Numbered from the stretch's first letter, positions 469-51,083 are shown. The stretch: 64,000 nt of DNA from Dehalococcoidia bacterium (GCA_045564835.1 JBJLGN010000021.1:1073-65072); one strand, 5' to 3'. The notes: a model not told the origin generated them from the sequence alone. Numbers and translations: made by a program.

Positions 469-586
469 TCCTGGCGATTACTTATTGTCCCATATCGTTG
501 CCAATACAGTATCGTCAGCGCAAAAGCGTTTCACTTCCGTGTTCGGGATGGGAACGGGTGGGTCAACTTCGCCATAATCACCAGGA
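469..586 (-). rRNA. rrf: 5S ribosomal RNA
   Basis: The reverse complement reads TCCTGGTGATTATGGCGAAGTTGACCCACCCGTTCCCATCCCGAACACGGAAGTGAAACGC...GGGACAATAAGTAATCGCCAGGA. It carries the universal CCCATCCCGAACACGGAAGT core, and the termini form helix I (TCCTGGTGATT / AATCGCCAGGA). Confidence 0.92.
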
Positions 587-14354: not shown

Positions 14355-15548
14355 ATGGAAAAAATTGATATTAGTATTGTTGGTGGAGGGATAGTTGGAT
14401 TAGCAACAGCTATGTATGCTCAAGAGAAGTACCCTGACAAGAAAATAAGTGTATTTGAAAAAGAAGATATATTAGCAAAACATCAAACTGGAAATAATAG
14501 TGGTGTAATTCATGCTGGAATTTATTATCAGCCAAGCTCGCAAAAAGCAAAGTTTTGTTGGCCAGGATCTTTGCTTCTACGTGAATTTTGTGACAGAAAT
14601 GAAATCAAATACGAAATGTGTGGGAAACTGATTGTTGCTACAGACGAATCTGAAATAGAAAGATTGAATAATTTGTACGAAAGAGGAAAACAAAATGGTG
14701 TTACAGGATTGCAATTAATTGATAAAGAAAAAATTAATGAATTAGAACCGTATGTAAATGCCATTAAAGGTTTATGGAGCCCCAATACAGGTATTATCGA
14801 TTATAAAGACTTAACTGTGGCTTACTCAAATGTATTCGAAAATAAAGGTGGAATCATATATAAAAACCAAGAAATACAAAGTATAAACCAGAATCAAAAT
14901 AATTTAATTTTGCAAACAAACTCACAAGAATATGAAACAAAATATCTTATAAATTGTGCAGGGTTATTTGCTGACCGGGTCGCAAAAATGATGAAATTAG
15001 ATTTTGATGTTAGGATTGTCCCTTTCAGAGGTGAATATTACACACTAACAAACGAATCCAAAAACATGGTTAATGGATTAATATATCCAGTTCCTGATCC
15101 AGAGCTCCCGTTCTTAGGTGTTCATTTTACAAAGAGAATAAATGGCGAAGTTGAAGCAGGACCTAATGCTGTGATGGCTTATTCTAGAGAAGGTTATAAT
15201 AAGTTTGACATAAACTTAAAAGATATGTACGAATCGTTTTCATATCCAGGTTTTTGGAAAATGGTTAAATCAAATTGGAAAACCGGATTATCTGAACAAT
15301 ACAGATCGATGAACAAACTGAAATTTGTTGATTCTCTTAAAAAATTAATACCAACTATATCATCAAAAGATTTAAATAATCCAGGAGCTGGAGTAAGAGC
15401 TCAAGCAATAGATAAAAACGGGAATTTATTACAAGATTTTAGTATAGTGAAAACTAGTAATTCATTACATGTATTAAGTGCTCCTTCTCCAGGTGCTACT
15501 TCTTCTTTGAAGATTGCAGAACATTTAATGACTGAAATAGAAATTTAA
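14355..15548 (+). CDS. lhgO: L-2-hydroxyglutarate oxidase/dehydrogenase (FAD)
   Basis: IVGGGIVGLATA dinucleotide motif and HQTGNNSGVIHAGIYY, typical of LhgO. Confidence 0.8.
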   Translation: MEKIDISIVGGGIVGLATAMYAQEKYPDKKISVFEKEDILAKHQTGNNSGVIHAGIYYQPSSQKAKFCWPGSLLLREFCDRNEIKYEMCGKLIVATDESEIERLNNLYERGKQNGVTGLQLIDKEKINELEPYVNAIKGLWSPNTGIIDYKDLTVAYSNVFENKGGIIYKNQEIQSINQNQNNLILQTNSQEYETKYLINCAGLFADRVAKMMKLDFDVRIVPFRGEYYTLTNESKNMVNGLIYPVPDPELPFLGVHFTKRINGEVEAGPNAVMAYSREGYNKFDINLKDMYESFSYPGFWKMVKSNWKTGLSEQYRSMNKLKFVDSLKKLIPTISSKDLNNPGAGVRAQAIDKNGNLLQDFSIVKTSNSLHVLSAPSPGATSSLKIAEHLMTEIEI

Positions 15549-17080
15549 TTTATAAAATTAATAATTCCTGTATTTCCATCTATTTCTATCAAATCATTAT
15601 CATTAATTATATTTGTTGCATTATTTACATCTAATATTGTTGGAATATTATATTCTCTAGCCACAATTGCTGTATGAGATAGTGTTCCTCCATTCTCACT
15701 TATGATTCCAGACACAATTCCAAACAACGGAGTCCAACTTGGATTTGTACTAATACATACCATAATATCCCCTTTTTTTAATTTATCCCAATCTTCAAAG
15801 CTTCTAATTATTTTTGCAAGCCCAGAAATTTTCCCTGCAGATGCTGAAGTACCTTTAAGTTGTTTAGTTTTTTCTATTAATTCTTCTTTTTGCATAAAAT
15901 TGTCTTCAGAGGTTAATTTTCCAAGATATTTTGGAGGATTCAAATTTTTATAATGATCACGTTGTTTTTTATTCTCAGAAACGATACTCATCAAGCCAGA
16001 TGTGTTTTGGTCAATATTAACAATATTCTTATAATTTAAATAAAATATATCAGAGTTATTTTCTATTAACCCTTTATTAACTAAAATATCTCCAAATTTT
16101 CGAAATGCTAAGCTAATTAAAGCATTACTATATTGGTCTATATAAAAAGAATGATCTTCTTTTAGATACCATATCTGAGATAAAATCGAATACATTTCAT
16201 GAATTTTAATTTTATCTTCATTATTTGTAATATTTGATACTAATTTGTTCAAATATTTTTGACGATTAGAATTGCTTGTTTGAGATATTTTATTTTCAAG
16301 TACAGAGATAGGTAGGCTTTTAATTAAATTTAGAACTATTGATTGATCATTAATCCAAATTTCATCAGATAAATCAAAACCTACTAATCTATATCCATAT
16401 AATTTATTAAACTTATCTACTTCTACTAGAAGTTGTTTATCATTAATATTTTGATCTACCGAATCATAAGATAACTTTAGGTTATATAAATTTTTATCTA
16501 TTTCCAAAGTTTTATTATTAATACCCTGAAAAAGATTATATAGATCAGTGAGGTTCATGTTAGTTTTAAATGTTTTTACAAAATCAAAAAAATTATCTGT
16601 GTAATGATGTAATGGAATAACAATAAGCATATGAATAAACCAGTGATTTCTATTAATATTTAATAATTCTTCAATTATTTTTTTTCCATTTTCTAATTCT
16701 GTAATATCGTCTATTTTATGTTTCATAAAATTTAAATCTTTATCTATTTGAGGTAAAAATTCATTTCTCCATCTGAAGTCTAGATTTTGATAATATGATT
16801 TATCAATTTCATTGTTTGAATTCTGATGTTTTATGGATGCAAAATATGTGTAGCCATTAATTATTTTTTTTTGCGAATTATTTGTTCTTCCAAAATAGTT
16901 GTTAGCATCAATAATTCCTTTGCCGGAGGATAATTCACTAATATCTGAAGATAAAGGAGTTACAGGAAGAAGATTATGACCACTTTCCCAAGTCCACATC
17001 ATTGATTTTTCCTCATCAGAAAAATTGACAGGAAACCAATCGGGTAAAAATAAATTTTCTGAAATATTACTCATAGTCAC
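15545..17080 (-). CDS. PEP-utilizing-enzyme mobile (swivel His) domain protein with an uncharacterised N-terminal region
   Basis: C-terminus has GGTLSHTAIVAREYNIPT (phosphohistidine motif). The N-terminal ~400 aa has no ATP-grasp motifs that I can recognise. Confidence 0.6.
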   Translation of the reverse strand: MTMSNISENLFLPDWFPVNFSDEEKSMMWTWESGHNLLPVTPLSSDISELSSGKGIIDANNYFGRTNNSQKKIINGYTYFASIKHQNSNNEIDKSYYQNLDFRWRNEFLPQIDKDLNFMKHKIDDITELENGKKIIEELLNINRNHWFIHMLIVIPLHHYTDNFFDFVKTFKTNMNLTDLYNLFQGINNKTLEIDKNLYNLKLSYDSVDQNINDKQLLVEVDKFNKLYGYRLVGFDLSDEIWINDQSIVLNLIKSLPISVLENKISQTSNSNRQKYLNKLVSNITNNEDKIKIHEMYSILSQIWYLKEDHSFYIDQYSNALISLAFRKFGDILVNKGLIENNSDIFYLNYKNIVNIDQNTSGLMSIVSENKKQRDHYKNLNPPKYLGKLTSEDNFMQKEELIEKTKQLKGTSASAGKISGLAKIIRSFEDWDKLKKGDIMVCISTNPSWTPLFGIVSGIISENGGTLSHTAIVAREYNIPTILDVNNATNIINDNDLIEIDGNTGIINFIN

Positions 17081-17153: not shown

Positions 17154-18413
17154 GTGAAAAATATTATCGATTCAGAAAGTAAAAAAAACAAAATAAATTT
17201 CTCCAATCCTTTAACTTCAATTAAATCAAGCACAGACTTCAAATACCTTTGGTTAGGCCAAGGAGGGCAAGGATTTGCTATGTGGTCAGAAATGATTGCA
17301 AGAAATTGGCTAACTTACCAATTAACAGGGTCTGCATTAGCTATAGGTATTGTCAATTTATTTAGAGCTATACCTTTTATAACAATAGGTTTATTTGGAG
17401 GAGTTGTCGCCGACAGATTCCCGAAAAAAAAGACTCTGATGATTATTCAAATATGGTCACTATTGATATATTTTGTAATGCTTATTTTGATTTCTACTGA
17501 TTTAATAAAACTTTGGCACGTCTATGCTACAGCTTTTTGTCTTGGATTAGGAATGGCTATTAATCAACCTCTTCGTACATCATTCATACCGCAGATGATT
17601 GACGAGAAAAATCTGTTAAACGCATTGTCATTAAATTCTATGGCTATGGGAGTTACAAGATTAATAGGACCAGCAGTAATTGGTTATATAATAGCTATTT
17701 CCGATAACAATGTTGCCCCTGCGTATATAGTTTCAACAGTATCATATTTATTTGTGATATACACAACTTTAAAAATAAATTTAAAAGGAAATCCTACAGA
17801 AAAACATACTAAATCTCCCATGAATGATTTTACAGATGGTATAAAGTACATGGTATTTGAAAACAGAACGGTTTTATGGCTAGTAATACTTGCCCTGGGG
17901 CCACTAGCATTTGGTTTCAGTTATATAAGCCTTTTACCAGTATATGTGGATGAGAAACTAAATCTTGGAGCTGATGCGTTTGGAGCTATTCAATCTATAT
18001 CATCAATAGGAGCTCTTTTAAGTACTTCTCTTTTAGCATCCTCAGGCGATATCAAAATCAAAGGCAAACTATTACTTGTAACTACGATCATTTATGGACT
18101 TGGTGTAATATTGATGGGATTCACTGGAAAAATATTTATAGCGTTTGGAATTGCAATATTTATTGGAGGCTCTCAATCTGTTTTCAGGACATGCGTTTCA
18201 AGTACAATAGTTTCAGTAACAGCAGAAAAATACAGAGGAAGAATGATAAGTATGACTATGTTAGACATGGGAGTTGCGTCAGTTGCTTCTATACTTGCTG
18301 GAAGAATAACAGATTTAATTAGCGTCTCATATGGAATGCTTTTTTGTGGGGTTATGTGTACTATTGTTGGGCTAACAACATTTGCAGCTCATAGAAAATT
18401 AATTAAAATTTAA
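17154..18413 (+). CDS. MFS transporter
   Basis: About 12 hydrophobic segments, and GGVVADRFPKKK, the MFS loop 2-3 motif. Confidence 0.75.
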   Translation: MKNIIDSESKKNKINFSNPLTSIKSSTDFKYLWLGQGGQGFAMWSEMIARNWLTYQLTGSALAIGIVNLFRAIPFITIGLFGGVVADRFPKKKTLMIIQIWSLLIYFVMLILISTDLIKLWHVYATAFCLGLGMAINQPLRTSFIPQMIDEKNLLNALSLNSMAMGVTRLIGPAVIGYIIAISDNNVAPAYIVSTVSYLFVIYTTLKINLKGNPTEKHTKSPMNDFTDGIKYMVFENRTVLWLVILALGPLAFGFSYISLLPVYVDEKLNLGADAFGAIQSISSIGALLSTSLLASSGDIKIKGKLLLVTTIIYGLGVILMGFTGKIFIAFGIAIFIGGSQSVFRTCVSSTIVSVTAEKYRGRMISMTMLDMGVASVASILAGRITDLISVSYGMLFCGVMCTIVGLTTFAAHRKLIKI

Positions 18414-18457: not shown

Positions 18458-18487
18458 TTGACATATCAAAATCAGATAATGTATATT
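18458..18487 (+). promoter_or_regulatory. Candidate promoter of the selenoprotein gene
   Basis: TTGACA (18458-18463), 18 nt spacer, TATATT (18482-18487). AGGTG lies 4 nt before ATG 18514. Confidence 0.4.
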
Positions 18488-18513
18488 ATTAAAATAAACC
18501 CATCAGGTGTAAA

Positions 18514-19284
18514 ATGAGTTCTTATAATTATGACAGCTTTCCTCTAGATTTTGATATGCAAGCATTTGTAGATTTCCCTACTATCGCAAATGCTGGAACC
18601 AAAGCACCTGAAGCTAAGGTATATAATATCAAGGAGAAAAAGTGGGAAGAGCTTTCAACATATTGGAAAGAAAAAACTACTATCATAGAATTTGGTTCCA
18701 TAACCTGATCAGAATGTGCCCTGGCGGCGCCGGGATTTAATAAATTAGTCGAAGAATTTGGAGACAAATTTAATTTTGTATTTGTATATACCAGAGAAGC
18801 TCATCCTGGTGAAAAAATACCCCACCTTAGTTCTTTTGAGCAAAAAATTGAACATGCAAAATTAATGACAAAAAAATATATTAACAGAACGATGCTAGTC
18901 GATTCTTTAGAAGGTGATGTTCATAAAGCTTATGGTAGACTCCCTAATATGACATATATAGTGAACAGATATGGGAATGTTATCTACAAATCAGATTGGA
19001 CAGACCCTTCTACAATAAAAATGGCTTTAAATCATTATCAAGAAGAACGAAAAATGATGGAAGATAAAATTAGAGTTACACCTTATTACATAGAATGGCA
19101 GCCAATGAGGAAAAATGATACTGAAGAATTCATGACAATATTATTAAACGATGCCGGACCAAAAGCAATTAAAGATTTCATAAATTCGGCAAATCACTAT
19201 ACAGGTCCAATACAATCAAATTCAAGTTTAGGAAAAGCCATGGGTAAAAAATTACAAGATTGGTTAGATAAACAAAGCTACTAA
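18514..19284 (+). CDS. Thioredoxin-fold, iodothyronine-deiodinase-like selenoprotein (in-frame UGA = Sec at 18706-18708), 256 aa
   Basis: Track ORFs 18514..18708 and 18865..19284 share a frame. The 52 codons between them are open. Read-through gives ..TTIIEFGSIT-U-SECALAAPGFNKLVEEFGDKFNFVFVYTREAHPGE..VDSLEGDVHKAYGRLPNMTYIVNRYGNVIYKSDW... A GC-rich hairpin follows the UGA. Confidence 0.7.
18719..18734 (+). promoter_or_regulatory. Candidate bacterial SECIS stem-loop
   Basis: CCCTGGCGGCGCCGGG starts 11 nt after the UGA. It forms five or six G-C pairs (719-721 with 732-734, 723-724 with 730-731) with a bulged U722 and a G-rich apical loop (CGGCG). It is the only run of this kind in an otherwise very AT-rich region. 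Confidence 0.55.
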
Positions 19285-19438: not shown

Positions 19439-19728
19439 GAATTGTTTTCCGTGAAAAAAGTATAAATCATTGCTACTATTGAACCAATAACAACCCCTAA
19501 AACTAAAATCCAAAATGAAAAAAATTGAATATTCCACATAAGTTTATTTATCGTAGAAATAATACTTAAATCGTAAGAACCCAATAATCTTTTATCTGTA
19601 GCTAGTCCGAAAATTGTTGTCAGGATACAAATAACACCATTAATTCCAAGTAATACCAGAATATAATTAATTATATTTTTAAATTTACCATTTTGATCTT
19701 TTGTCATCATAGCCCGTATGTATATCAA
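19435..19728 (-). CDS. Small hypothetical membrane protein (2 TM)
   Basis: Two hydrophobic helices. Overlaps the end of the upstream TPP-enzyme gene, so the true start may be Met7 or Met8. Confidence 0.35.
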   Translation of the reverse strand: MIYIRAMMTKDQNGKFKNIINYILVLLGINGVICILTTIFGLATDKRLLGSYDLSIISTINKLMWNIQFFSFWILVLGVVIGSIVAMIYTFFTENNS

Positions 19729-21319
19729 TCAAGACTGTATTGCCTTTTTGGTTTTCTGTCATAGCATATTTGATGGATTCACCAACTTCATCAACAGATT
19801 TTACTACAATACCTTTTGCCCCCATCCCTTCAGCAATTTTAGCATAATCACCTTTCATATAAGAAACCCCAAAATTTTTCCTTGCATTAGGAAACCCACC
19901 TGGATAAGTTGCCATTCCGCCATTGTTCAAAATAATAGTCGTGATAGGAAGTTTTGCTCTTACTGCTGTTTCAATATCTAATCCAGACATTCCGAAAGCT
20001 CCATCTCCCATTAAGTTTAAGCAGAATTTATCTGGATTTGCCATTTTAGCGCCAATCATTAATGGGATACTAAATCCTAGATGAGTAGTTTTCCCCCATC
20101 CTATATAACTATGAGGAACAGTAGCATTAAAAAATGGGACAATTTGATCTCTTGGTGCTCCTGCGTCATGGGTAACTATGGATTTTTCAGGGATAATATT
20201 TTTATTAATTTCATTTATAACTCTGTAAGGATTAATAGGGATTTCATTTGAATTCAAATGAGATTCCCATTCACTAAGCCATTGTTTTTTTAAATTACTA
20301 ATTTTGGTTTGGACATCAGGATTAGGTTTTTTATCTTTAATAAGATCTGAGACTTCATCAATTAATAGATCTAAGGTTAATTTAGTATCACCATTTAATA
20401 TTACATCAGCATAATGATCTTTATTTATATCTTCGTAATTATCAGAATTATGTATTAAGAATTTTGAGGCAGTATCAATAGATTGTCCATATGGAGTGTC
20501 AGTCATGCTACTACCTAATGCTAGAACAACATCACATTCATCAAGAAAAGTTCTGGCTTGAAGAGTTGTCGTTTGAACTCCTGCACCTAAAGCTAGTGGA
20601 TGCACTTCATTGATTGCTGATTTGCCGGGCATAGTTGTATATACAGGAATATTTGTTATTTCAGCAAAAGATTGAAGTTGTTTAGTAGCTCTTGCAAACA
20701 AAACTCCTTGACCAGCAATAATTATAGGATTTTTCGCTCCAAGCAGTTTTTTAACTGCGAGCGAAACATCTGTTTTTGATGGCGAATGATACCCTTTAGT
20801 AGGAGGTTTGTAGGAGTTAATATCGACTGATATTTTTGATGCAGAAATATCAGATGGTACCTCAACAACCACAGGACCAGGTCTACCATTTTTAATATTA
20901 TGAAAAGCTCTTCGCATAACATCAATAACTTGGTCAGGTTGGGTAATACATTCAACGTTTTTTACAATACCTTTATAATTTGATGACGCACTAAAATTAG
21001 GCCTTATTGATAATTGATTTAGTGGAGGGGCTCCGGGAATAATTAATACAGGTATATTGTCTGCATAGGCTTGGCTAATTCCTCCCATGCTATTTTCTGC
21101 ACCTGCTTGGCTTTGCATAGAAAAAACTCCAATTTTTTCTCTATCACTAGTTCTACTAAAGCCATCAGCTGCCATCATAGCTCCTCTTTCATGACGAAAC
21201 ATGATAGGTCTTATATCAATTTTCGAAAGGTCTTCTATGAGTGGATTATTTGGAAAACATGAAATCCATTCAATGTTTTCTTTTTTAAGTATTTGAGCTA
21301 TTGCTTCAGAAACATTCAT
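19685..21319 (-). CDS. Thiamine-pyrophosphate-dependent enzyme (acetolactate-synthase-like superfamily)
   Basis: N-terminal pyrimidine-binding domain (FRHERGAMMAADGFSR) and a C-terminal TPP motif GDGAFGMSGLDIETAVRAKLPITTIILNNGG. Confidence 0.8.
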   Translation of the reverse strand: MNVSEAIAQILKKENIEWISCFPNNPLIEDLSKIDIRPIMFRHERGAMMAADGFSRTSDREKIGVFSMQSQAGAENSMGGISQAYADNIPVLIIPGAPPLNQLSIRPNFSASSNYKGIVKNVECITQPDQVIDVMRRAFHNIKNGRPGPVVVEVPSDISASKISVDINSYKPPTKGYHSPSKTDVSLAVKKLLGAKNPIIIAGQGVLFARATKQLQSFAEITNIPVYTTMPGKSAINEVHPLALGAGVQTTTLQARTFLDECDVVLALGSSMTDTPYGQSIDTASKFLIHNSDNYEDINKDHYADVILNGDTKLTLDLLIDEVSDLIKDKKPNPDVQTKISNLKKQWLSEWESHLNSNEIPINPYRVINEINKNIIPEKSIVTHDAGAPRDQIVPFFNATVPHSYIGWGKTTHLGFSIPLMIGAKMANPDKFCLNLMGDGAFGMSGLDIETAVRAKLPITTIILNNGGMATYPGGFPNARKNFGVSYMKGDYAKIAEGMGAKGIVVKSVDEVGESIKYAMTENQKGNTVLIDIHTGYDDKRSKW

Positions 21320-38239: not shown

Positions 38240-38262
38240 ATTAAAAATATACCATAATGAAT

Positions 38263-38295
38263 AAAATGTCGGGCTACAAAACAGCCCGACATTTT
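38263..38295 (-). terminator. Intra-operon hairpin (attenuating terminator) between aapJ and aapQ
   Basis: A 13-bp perfect stem, AAAATGTCGGGCT (38263-38275) with AGCCCGACATTTT (38283-38295), around a 7-nt loop. T-rich tail on the minus strand. Confidence 0.55.
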
Positions 38296-38322
38296 ATCAA
38301 ATTCAATTATTAGTTAGTAAAT

Positions 38323-51007: not shown

Positions 51008-51083
51008 TGGAGCGGGAGACCGGATTCGAACCGGCGACATTCTGCTTGGAAGGCAGATACTCTAGCCGCTGAGTTACTCCCGC
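51008..51083 (-). tRNA. tRNA-Gly (anticodon UCC), CCA encoded
   Basis: The reverse complement folds as GCGGGAG-TA-ACTC-AGCGGCTA-GAGT-A-TCTGC-CTTCCAA-GCAGA-ATGTC-GCCGG-TTCGAAT-CCGGT-CTCCCGC-T-CCA. This is a perfect 76-nt cloverleaf. Confidence 0.92.

Follow-up and report, generated by a model that had tools for sequence, protein, structure and literature searches.

A hairpin at positions 18720-18734 of the 64,000-nucleotide stretch of DNA analyzed here (the window) is very probably the bacterial SECIS element (bSECIS) of a gene that encodes a deiodinase-like, thioredoxin-fold selenoprotein. A preliminary description of this DNA had proposed a bacterial SECIS behind a selenocysteine (Sec)-encoding UGA, and this remained the best explanation of the site: the UGA was found in 98 of 98 homologous loci, the hairpin covaried among them, and its geometry and energy lay within the published limits for bSECIS elements. 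The features of the locus are as follows.

18458-18487, plus strand: promoter-like site (TTGACA, 18 nt, TATATT) from a consensus scan, agreeing at 11 of 12 positions; a consensus match only
18505-18509, plus strand: Shine-Dalgarno-like motif AGGTG, read from the sequence
18514-19284, plus strand: deiodinase-like (thioredoxin-fold) selenoprotein gene, 256 codons and a TAA stop, with one internal UGA
18706-18708, plus strand: in-frame UGA at codon 65, putatively Sec, the first residue of a U-S-E-C redox motif
18709-18719, plus strand: 11-nt spacer from the UGA to the stem, covering Ser66, Glu67, Cys68, and the first two bases of Ala69, read from the sequence
18715-18717, plus strand: TGT codon of Cys68, the partner cysteine of the UxxC motif, invariant in family alignments
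18720-18734, plus strand: probable SECIS hairpin, with the 5' arm at 18720-18725 (CCUGGC), the loop at 18726-18728 (GGC), and the 3' arm at 18729-18734 (GCCGGG)

The gene, its product, and its relatives

The reading frame consisted of a 64-codon ORF, starting at the ATG at 18514, that was joined in frame by the TGA to 191 more codons ending with the TAA at 19282-19284. The joined product reads ...IIEFGSIT-U-SEC-ALAAPGFNKLVEEFGDKFNFVFVYTREAHPGE..., and a profile search of this 256-residue protein, made with Cys substituted for the stop at codon 65, identified the Pfam family T4_deiodinase at 52.7 bits (cut-off 27; E = 4.8e-14) over residues 20-161, with the match running straight over the UGA. 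Weaker Pfam matches were found to AhpC-TSA, Redoxin, and Thioredoxin. The top PDB match by sequence was the catalytic core of mouse Dio3 (4TR3; E = 7.6e-7), where FGSIT-U-SEC aligned to FGSCT-C(U)-PPF and codon 65 was placed opposite the Cys that replaces the catalytic Sec. By this alignment, the UGA would occupy the catalytic selenocysteine position.

The fold was assessed on an AF2 model of P0001, a protein that is 86% identical to the window protein and was deposited with Trp at codon 65. The model had a mean pLDDT of 88 and a pTM of 0.87, and its residue 65 directly precedes the helix 66-82, which is the classical position of CxxC in the thioredoxin fold. A Foldseek search with the model placed Dio3 (4TR3; E = 5e-10) and Dio2 (9H48) at the top, followed by CxxC oxidoreductases of the ResA/DsbE type. 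The Pfam score, the UGA at the catalytic position, and the fold all agreed with membership of the bacterial deiodinase-like selenoprotein family (PF00837, UxxC). The predicted product carries its U-x-x-C redox centre at the N-terminal end of the first helix of the thioredoxin fold, and thiol/selenol-based oxidoreduction would be its most plausible function. Besides the thioredoxin-fold domain, the protein contained a C-terminal extension of about 90 residues (165-256; window 19006-19281) that was conserved in the family (TPYYxEWxPxRxND...AGPxAV). In the model, residues 165-256 were confidently predicted to form four helices; this part had no Pfam family and lay outside the structural matches to Dio3 and ResA.

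Homologues in protein databases were mostly C-terminal fragments of 165-180 residues, together with one full-length entry with Trp at residue 65 and rare Cys forms, a pattern that typically marks a selenoprotein with a faulty annotation. Among species-representative genomes, a scan identified 380 relatives, and in the best 80 of these a TGA was found at the equivalent of codon 65 in all 80. A metagenome scan added 18 marine relatives (81-99% identity), each with only one internal TGA, again at codon 65. In all 98 loci fetched by the two scans (the best 80 from genomes and the 18 from metagenomes), the TGA was conserved and the hairpin was located at the matching place, with the loop C-G-[G/U]-N-N. 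The best 80 genome loci belonged to MAGs labelled with approximately 10 phyla, and the labels comprised Dehalococcoidia and other Chloroflexota, Acidobacteriota, Planctomycetota, Myxococcota/Deltaproteobacteria, Verrucomicrobiota, Bacillota, Eiseniibacteriota, Rokuibacteriota, and Alphaproteobacteria. The nearest loci were from marine Dehalococcoidia/Chloroflexota MAGs of about 30% GC, at 81-92% identity. The redox motif was U-S-E-C in the window, compared with the U-P-Y-C that is usual in the family.

The immediate context of the UGA was also biased (window 18703-18709 region). The preceding codon was ACC in 24 of 24 clade sequences despite a GC3 of 0.19, and the UGA was followed by U in the clade and by C in 71 of the 75 distant loci; both may reflect a context constraint on recoding. 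In addition, three loci (L037:2255, L044:1994, and L043:4044) contained a second deiodinase-like paralogue at a distance of about 1 kb from the main gene. Its motif, FGSIT-U-PPFVGEVPPL, is nearer to the animal U-P-P-F, and its hairpin (GUGGGGGA-GGU-UCCUCCAC) had the same spacing, +13 to +31, as that of the main gene. In the L043 paralogue, the Sec codon was occupied by TGG in place of TGA.

The surroundings of the gene in the window included the following features.

469-585, minus strand: 5S rRNA gene, near the left edge
15545-17080: gene for a protein with a PEP-utilising mobile domain, neighbour of the selenoprotein gene
17154-18413: MFS transporter gene, neighbour of the selenoprotein gene
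19685-21319: gene for a ThDP-dependent enzyme, neighbour of the selenoprotein gene
51008-51083, minus strand: single tRNA-Gly(UCC) gene

The three neighbouring genes had no obvious redox link. The position of the 5S rRNA gene near the left edge suggests an rRNA operon that runs off the window. A near-perfect hairpin of 15-17 bp (AAAAUGUCGGGCU...AGCCCGACAUUUU; -23.8 kcal/mol) was also found at 38258-38299, between two minus-strand ORFs. Of all TGA-anchored folds in the window this was the most stable, and it resembles an intrinsic terminator acting in both directions.

Fold, covariation, and codon usage of the hairpin

The segment CCCTGGCGGCGCCGGG (18719-18734) contains G or C at 15 of its 16 positions, within a window that is AT-rich (about 30% GC, 28-34% per 2 kb; GC3 of 0.19). 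The preliminary description had remarked on this composition and on the absence of other long G/C runs, and the segment was indeed the GC maximum of the 64 kb: 16-mers with at least 15 G+C occurred only at 18719-18734 and at the overlapping 18718-18733, and no 16-mer outside 18715-18736 exceeded 13 of 16. The minimum free energy (MFE) fold of 18706-18745 was a 6-bp hairpin of -9.6 kcal/mol, with the pairs C720-G734, C721-G733, U722·G732, G723-C731, G724-C730, and C725-G729 enclosing the loop G726-G727-C728. Opening of the closing pair C725-G729 yields the loop CGGCG.

This register departs from the one first described, in which C719-C721 paired with G732-G734 and U722 was bulged. The inner pairs G723-C731, G724-C730, and C725-G729 of that description were retained in the MFE fold. 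Its outer pairs can be drawn but are not part of the MFE fold, and the orthologues spoke against them: the three outer pairs failed to form in 43, 68, and 45 of the 81 sequences. U722 was not bulged but paired with G732, and the corresponding pair was U-A in 42 and U-G in 31 of the 81 loci, U-A thus being the form in most relatives. Similarly, the spacing of 11 nt from the UGA holds for the supported register, where the stem begins at 18720, but would be 10 nt in the register first described.

Folding stability at the site was unusual, not unique. Among 40-mers of the window, the mean MFE was -3.05 (sd 2.51) and only 1.8% reached -9.6, while the site ranked 34th of 2,604 TGA-anchored 40-mers. 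When segments of 40-61 nt were shuffled, the folding energy was no better than that of the shuffled sequences (z = -0.31 and +0.25). A lack of stability relative to shuffled controls had been named in advance as grounds for rejecting the hairpin, and literally such a lack was seen (z about 0), but the shuffles are uninformative because they retain the GC patch. Thermodynamics alone would not single out the site, and the case is therefore carried by comparative evidence. Searched against Rfam release 15, the segment 18600-18850 had no match even at an E cut-off of 10, and the whole window had no SECIS family at the gathering score. A possible lower helix extending the SECIS, pairing 18708-18713 with 18736-18741 (AUCAGA/UUUGAU, including the A of the UGA), could be formed in 12 of 22 clade sequences. 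In the window itself it is broken by AAT, instead of GAT, at codon 76, and the lower helix was not conserved.

In most relatives, the register extended to 8 bp (GGGCUGGC-GGC-GCCGGCCC), spanning columns 13-31 as counted from the U of the UGA, compared with 6 bp including one G·U pair in the clade of the window. The spacer contained no indels across the 81 aligned loci. Among these loci, 90.7% of the cells were paired in this register, compared with 28-49% when the partners were slid by 1-3 columns, and RNAalifold independently recovered the identical register. The loop was C-G-[G/U]-N-N in 81 of 81 loci. Two-sided changes were found in 56 cells, distributed over four pairs, and none of 500 column shuffles reached the observed pairing or covariation. 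Compensatory changes in orthologues, which had been put forward as a check on the hairpin, were thus observed, and orthologues that keep the UGA without a structure at this position, which would have spoken against it, were not found among the 98 loci: the hairpin was kept at the same position.

The covariation connected silent with amino-acid-changing positions. A Gly codon contributes its silent third base to a pair whose other member is the second, amino-acid-changing base of the codon five positions on, with GGG opposite GCC (Ala) in 17 loci, GGA opposite GUC (Val) in six, and GGU opposite GAC (Asp) in four; GCG/GCG was also seen. Likewise, the choice of Gly or Ala at the first codon covaried with a silent choice between GCC and GCG at the second, giving a G-C pair in 32 loci and a C-G pair in 29. 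Such covariation between silent and non-silent sites is not predicted by protein-level selection. A covariance model trained only on 75 distant orthologues (at most 48% amino-acid identity) returned 18721-18733 as its only hit over both strands of the 64 kb, with 13.7 bits and a rough E of about 0.01; the next best hit in the window had an E of about 6.

The codons of the hairpin had been called atypical for the genome, and their usage in the window agreed with this. The shares within their synonymous families were 7.3% for GCC, 2.7% for CTG, 5.4% for each of the two GCG codons, and 7.1% for CCG, and the joint probability of the string GCC-CTG-GCG-GCG-CCG given the peptide was about 2e-7. CTG, GCG, and GCG were invariant across 22 distinct CDS of the clade (81-99% amino-acid identity), compared with 66 other conserved four-fold codons, of which only 7.6% were invariant and whose third positions had a mean diversity of 0.44. 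The GC3 of the clade was 0.75 in the hairpin codons and 0.18 elsewhere. The hairpin sites that did vary in the clade preserved pairing, as CCG/CCA results in U·G or U-A and GCC/GCT results in C-G or U·G.

These codons also encode [G/A]-L-A-A-P-[A/V/D], a peptide conserved in the family, and conservation alone is ambiguous because the hairpin overlaps the codons of this peptide. RNA and protein constraints overlap here, and part of the sequence conservation is at the protein level. The covariation and the freezing of silent sites nevertheless allow RNA selection to be separated from protein selection. The earlier proposal of selection on RNA structure rather than on the protein was accordingly borne out in its first half, by the frozen silent sites, and not in its second, since ALAAP is conserved.

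According to the consensus model of Zhang and Gladyshev, a bSECIS has an upper stem of 4-16 bp capped by a loop of 3-9 nt, a G within the first two loop positions, usually as N1-G-[G|U]-N-N2, in which N1 pairs with N2, a distance of 16-37 nt between the UGA and the loop, and an MFE of at most -7.5 kcal/mol (PMC13188914, Fig. 2). The fold of the window agreed with the published pattern throughout. The stem-loop is located directly 3' of an in-frame UGA and within the ORF, it has a 6-bp stem and a loop of 3 nt (GGC) or 5 nt (CGGCG), and its loop region reads C-G-G-C-G. The distance from the UGA is 17 nt (18709-18725) with the 3-nt loop and 16 nt, the lower limit, with the 5-nt loop, and the energy is -9.6 compared with the threshold of -7.5 kcal/mol. 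In addition, orthologues with the UGA showed compensatory changes that maintained the structure.

Homologues with Cys at the position of codon 65 (P0004, P0059, and P0121) provided a further comparison. The Cys forms P0004 and P0121 likewise contained the peptide [GA]-L-A-A-P. Two close Cys forms, L081 (~390-440) and L103 (~500-550), each a single short contig, carried TGC at the Sec codon and kept the hairpin with 8/8 and 6/8 pairs, respectively, which suggests either a recent replacement of Sec by Cys or an error in the reads. Their retention of the hairpin indicates that the hairpin is not strictly tied to the UGA. The distant Cys homologues L082, L104, and L105 had neither the peptide nor the hairpin, with 3/8 pairs in register. 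As a test, the comparison with Cys forms was consistent with a SECIS but not discriminating.

Proposed decoding and alternative explanations

In the proposed mechanism, a ribosome arriving at UGA65 would encounter the hairpin 11 nt downstream, which would present its G-rich apical loop (C-G-G-C-G). The C-terminal domain of SelB, a specialized elongation factor, would bind this hairpin and bring Sec-tRNA(Sec) into the A site, whereupon the UGA would be decoded as selenocysteine and translation would proceed for 191 further codons. Because the window contains no genes of the Sec machinery, decoding as Sec is inferred rather than shown: ARAGORN and a crude sequence-motif scan found no tRNA-Sec and no selA, selB, or selD signatures in the 64 kb. 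Sec machinery was likewise not found in the flanks of the fetched loci by a motif scan and, over L001-L060, by a tRNA scan. Its absence is a weak negative, as the window covers only 64 kb of the genome.

The first alternative is that the hairpin is a by-product of the conserved C-A-L-A-A-P-G peptide, without a function as RNA, and that the UGA is passed independently of a SECIS, for example through near-cognate read-through or insertion of Trp or Cys. The conservation of [GA]-L-A-A-P across the family, including the Cys forms P0004 and P0121, the retention of the hairpin in the Cys-form loci of these two proteins, and the Sec machinery not being seen in the window would all fit such an origin. 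Under it, a GC3 of 0.19 predicts codons ending in A or T, whereas CTG-GCG-GCG was frozen in 22 distinct sequences; silent bases covaried with amino-acid-changing ones such that Watson-Crick pairs were maintained; and the distant Cys homologues L082, L104, and L105 lacked the peptide together with the hairpin. A by-product is accordingly regarded as improbable. Still less credence is given to the UGA being a true stop, with a 64-residue peptide followed by a separate downstream protein, or a pseudogene, and with the hairpin acting as a terminator or attenuator. Public gene callers do split the gene in this manner, and the database entries are mostly the C-terminal fragments of 165-180 residues, but both the Pfam domain and the confident AF2 fold are continuous over the UGA, and the TGA and the frame were conserved in 98 of 98 scan-derived loci from several phyla. 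Moreover, the next in-frame ATG, GTG, or TTG after the UGA is the ATG at codon 118 (18865), a scan for terminator-like sites found none, and in the high-GC relatives the stem is not followed by a U-tract.

A reading of UGA as a sense codon (Trp or Gly) in an alternative genetic code, as the gene caller of P0001 assumed, is just as remote. It would account for the Trp deposited at codon 65 of P0001, and the genome is low in GC. However, TGA ended seven of 50 long ORFs in the window, several of them at typical operon junctions, which argues against a global reassignment, and the selenoprotein gene was the only credible TGA-bridged pair of long ORFs in the window. Relatives of high GC content, from many phyla with the standard code, have the TGA as well, and the homologues carry Cys, not Trp or Gly, at codon 65. 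The other TGA-bridged ORF pairs in the window were considered as selenoprotein genes and rejected, being either shadows on the antisense strand or neighbouring genes that share a frame. A bacterial SECIS that directs Sec insertion at codon 65 thus remains the strongly preferred explanation.

Significance and comparison with known systems

In public annotation, this gene is split or mistranslated, with entries that are C-terminal "hypothetical protein" fragments or that carry Trp at the Sec position. Recognition of the SECIS restores a selenoprotein of 256 residues and makes a low-GC marine lineage a likely selenium user. The locus is also a clear example of an RNA structure within a coding region that overrides codon bias and shapes amino-acid choice. 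A more far-reaching and rather doubtful possibility is that the gene and its SECIS travel together, as a self-contained recoding cassette, across the approximately 10 labelled phyla. As one loop and one stem register were found across these phylum labels, very different SelB proteins would then read a single signal. If so, the RNA stem would dictate the choice of Ala, Val, or Asp five codons on through the wobble base of a Gly codon, and the 6-bp version of the 30%-GC, Dehalococcoidia-like clade would be close to a natural minimal SelB-binding hairpin. More speculative still, a near-obligately Sec-containing deiodinase homologue in a Dehalococcoidia-like host could act on halogenated aromatics instead of disulfides.

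The closest known system is the bacterial deiodinase-like family. Deiodinase-like proteins with an in-frame UGA and a bacterial SECIS were first described from the Sargasso Sea metagenome by Zhang, Fomenko, and Gladyshev in 2005, with four Sec sequences (PMC1088965, Table 1, Fig. 7), and the GOS data included 22 Sec and 21 Cys deiodinase-like sequences (PMC2398784). A "Deiodinase-like protein, PF00837, UxxC" is listed in a 2026 review (PMC13188914) and also in a review from 2022. The family, the UxxC motif, and the bacterial SECIS have therefore been in the literature since 2005, and the locus is a further instance that raises no new question. The window gene and the published family (PMC1088965) have in common the Pfam family, UxxC, the catalytic Sec, a marine origin, and rare Cys homologues, as well as a stem-loop of the bacterial type, with a small G-containing loop, directly after the UGA. 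This comparison was with the published description of the Sargasso sequences and concerns the family rather than the subfamily. The window instance differs from the family in its 30%-GC, Dehalococcoidia-like genome (as judged by the MAG labels of the closest loci), in a stem trimmed from 8 to 6 bp, and in the motif U-S-E-C instead of U-P-Y-C.

The structure also has a counterpart in the E. coli gene fdhF. The fdhF SECIS, as reported by Liu et al. in 1998 and in work from the Bock lab, is said to consist of a minimal upper stem-loop of 17 nt, 11 nt after the UGA, with a bulged U and a GGUC loop. Both elements lie inside the coding region, with a short GC-rich stem 11 nt after the UGA and a small loop in which G is followed by G or U, and both presumably act by tethering SelB. 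The hairpin of the window differs from fdhF in its loop, GGC or CGGCG instead of GGUC, and in having no bulged U, and the two have no sequence similarity. The resemblance to fdhF pointed out in the preliminary description therefore holds only at a generic level (a short GC stem, a small G-rich loop, and the 11-nt spacing), because U722 is not bulged.

Among eukaryotic proteins, the animal deiodinases Dio1-3 resemble the window protein in the thioredoxin/peroxiredoxin-like fold, in Sec at the equivalent active-site position, and in the FGS-x-T-U and EAHP motifs. They differ in having a eukaryotic SECIS in the 3'-UTR and the motif U-P-P-F, which lacks a Cys at +3. For the window protein, thyroid hormones are implausible as a substrate; compared with Dio1-3, it carries a UxxC like that of the ResA/TlpA-type thiol-disulfide oxidoreductases and a C-terminal helical extension of about 90 residues.
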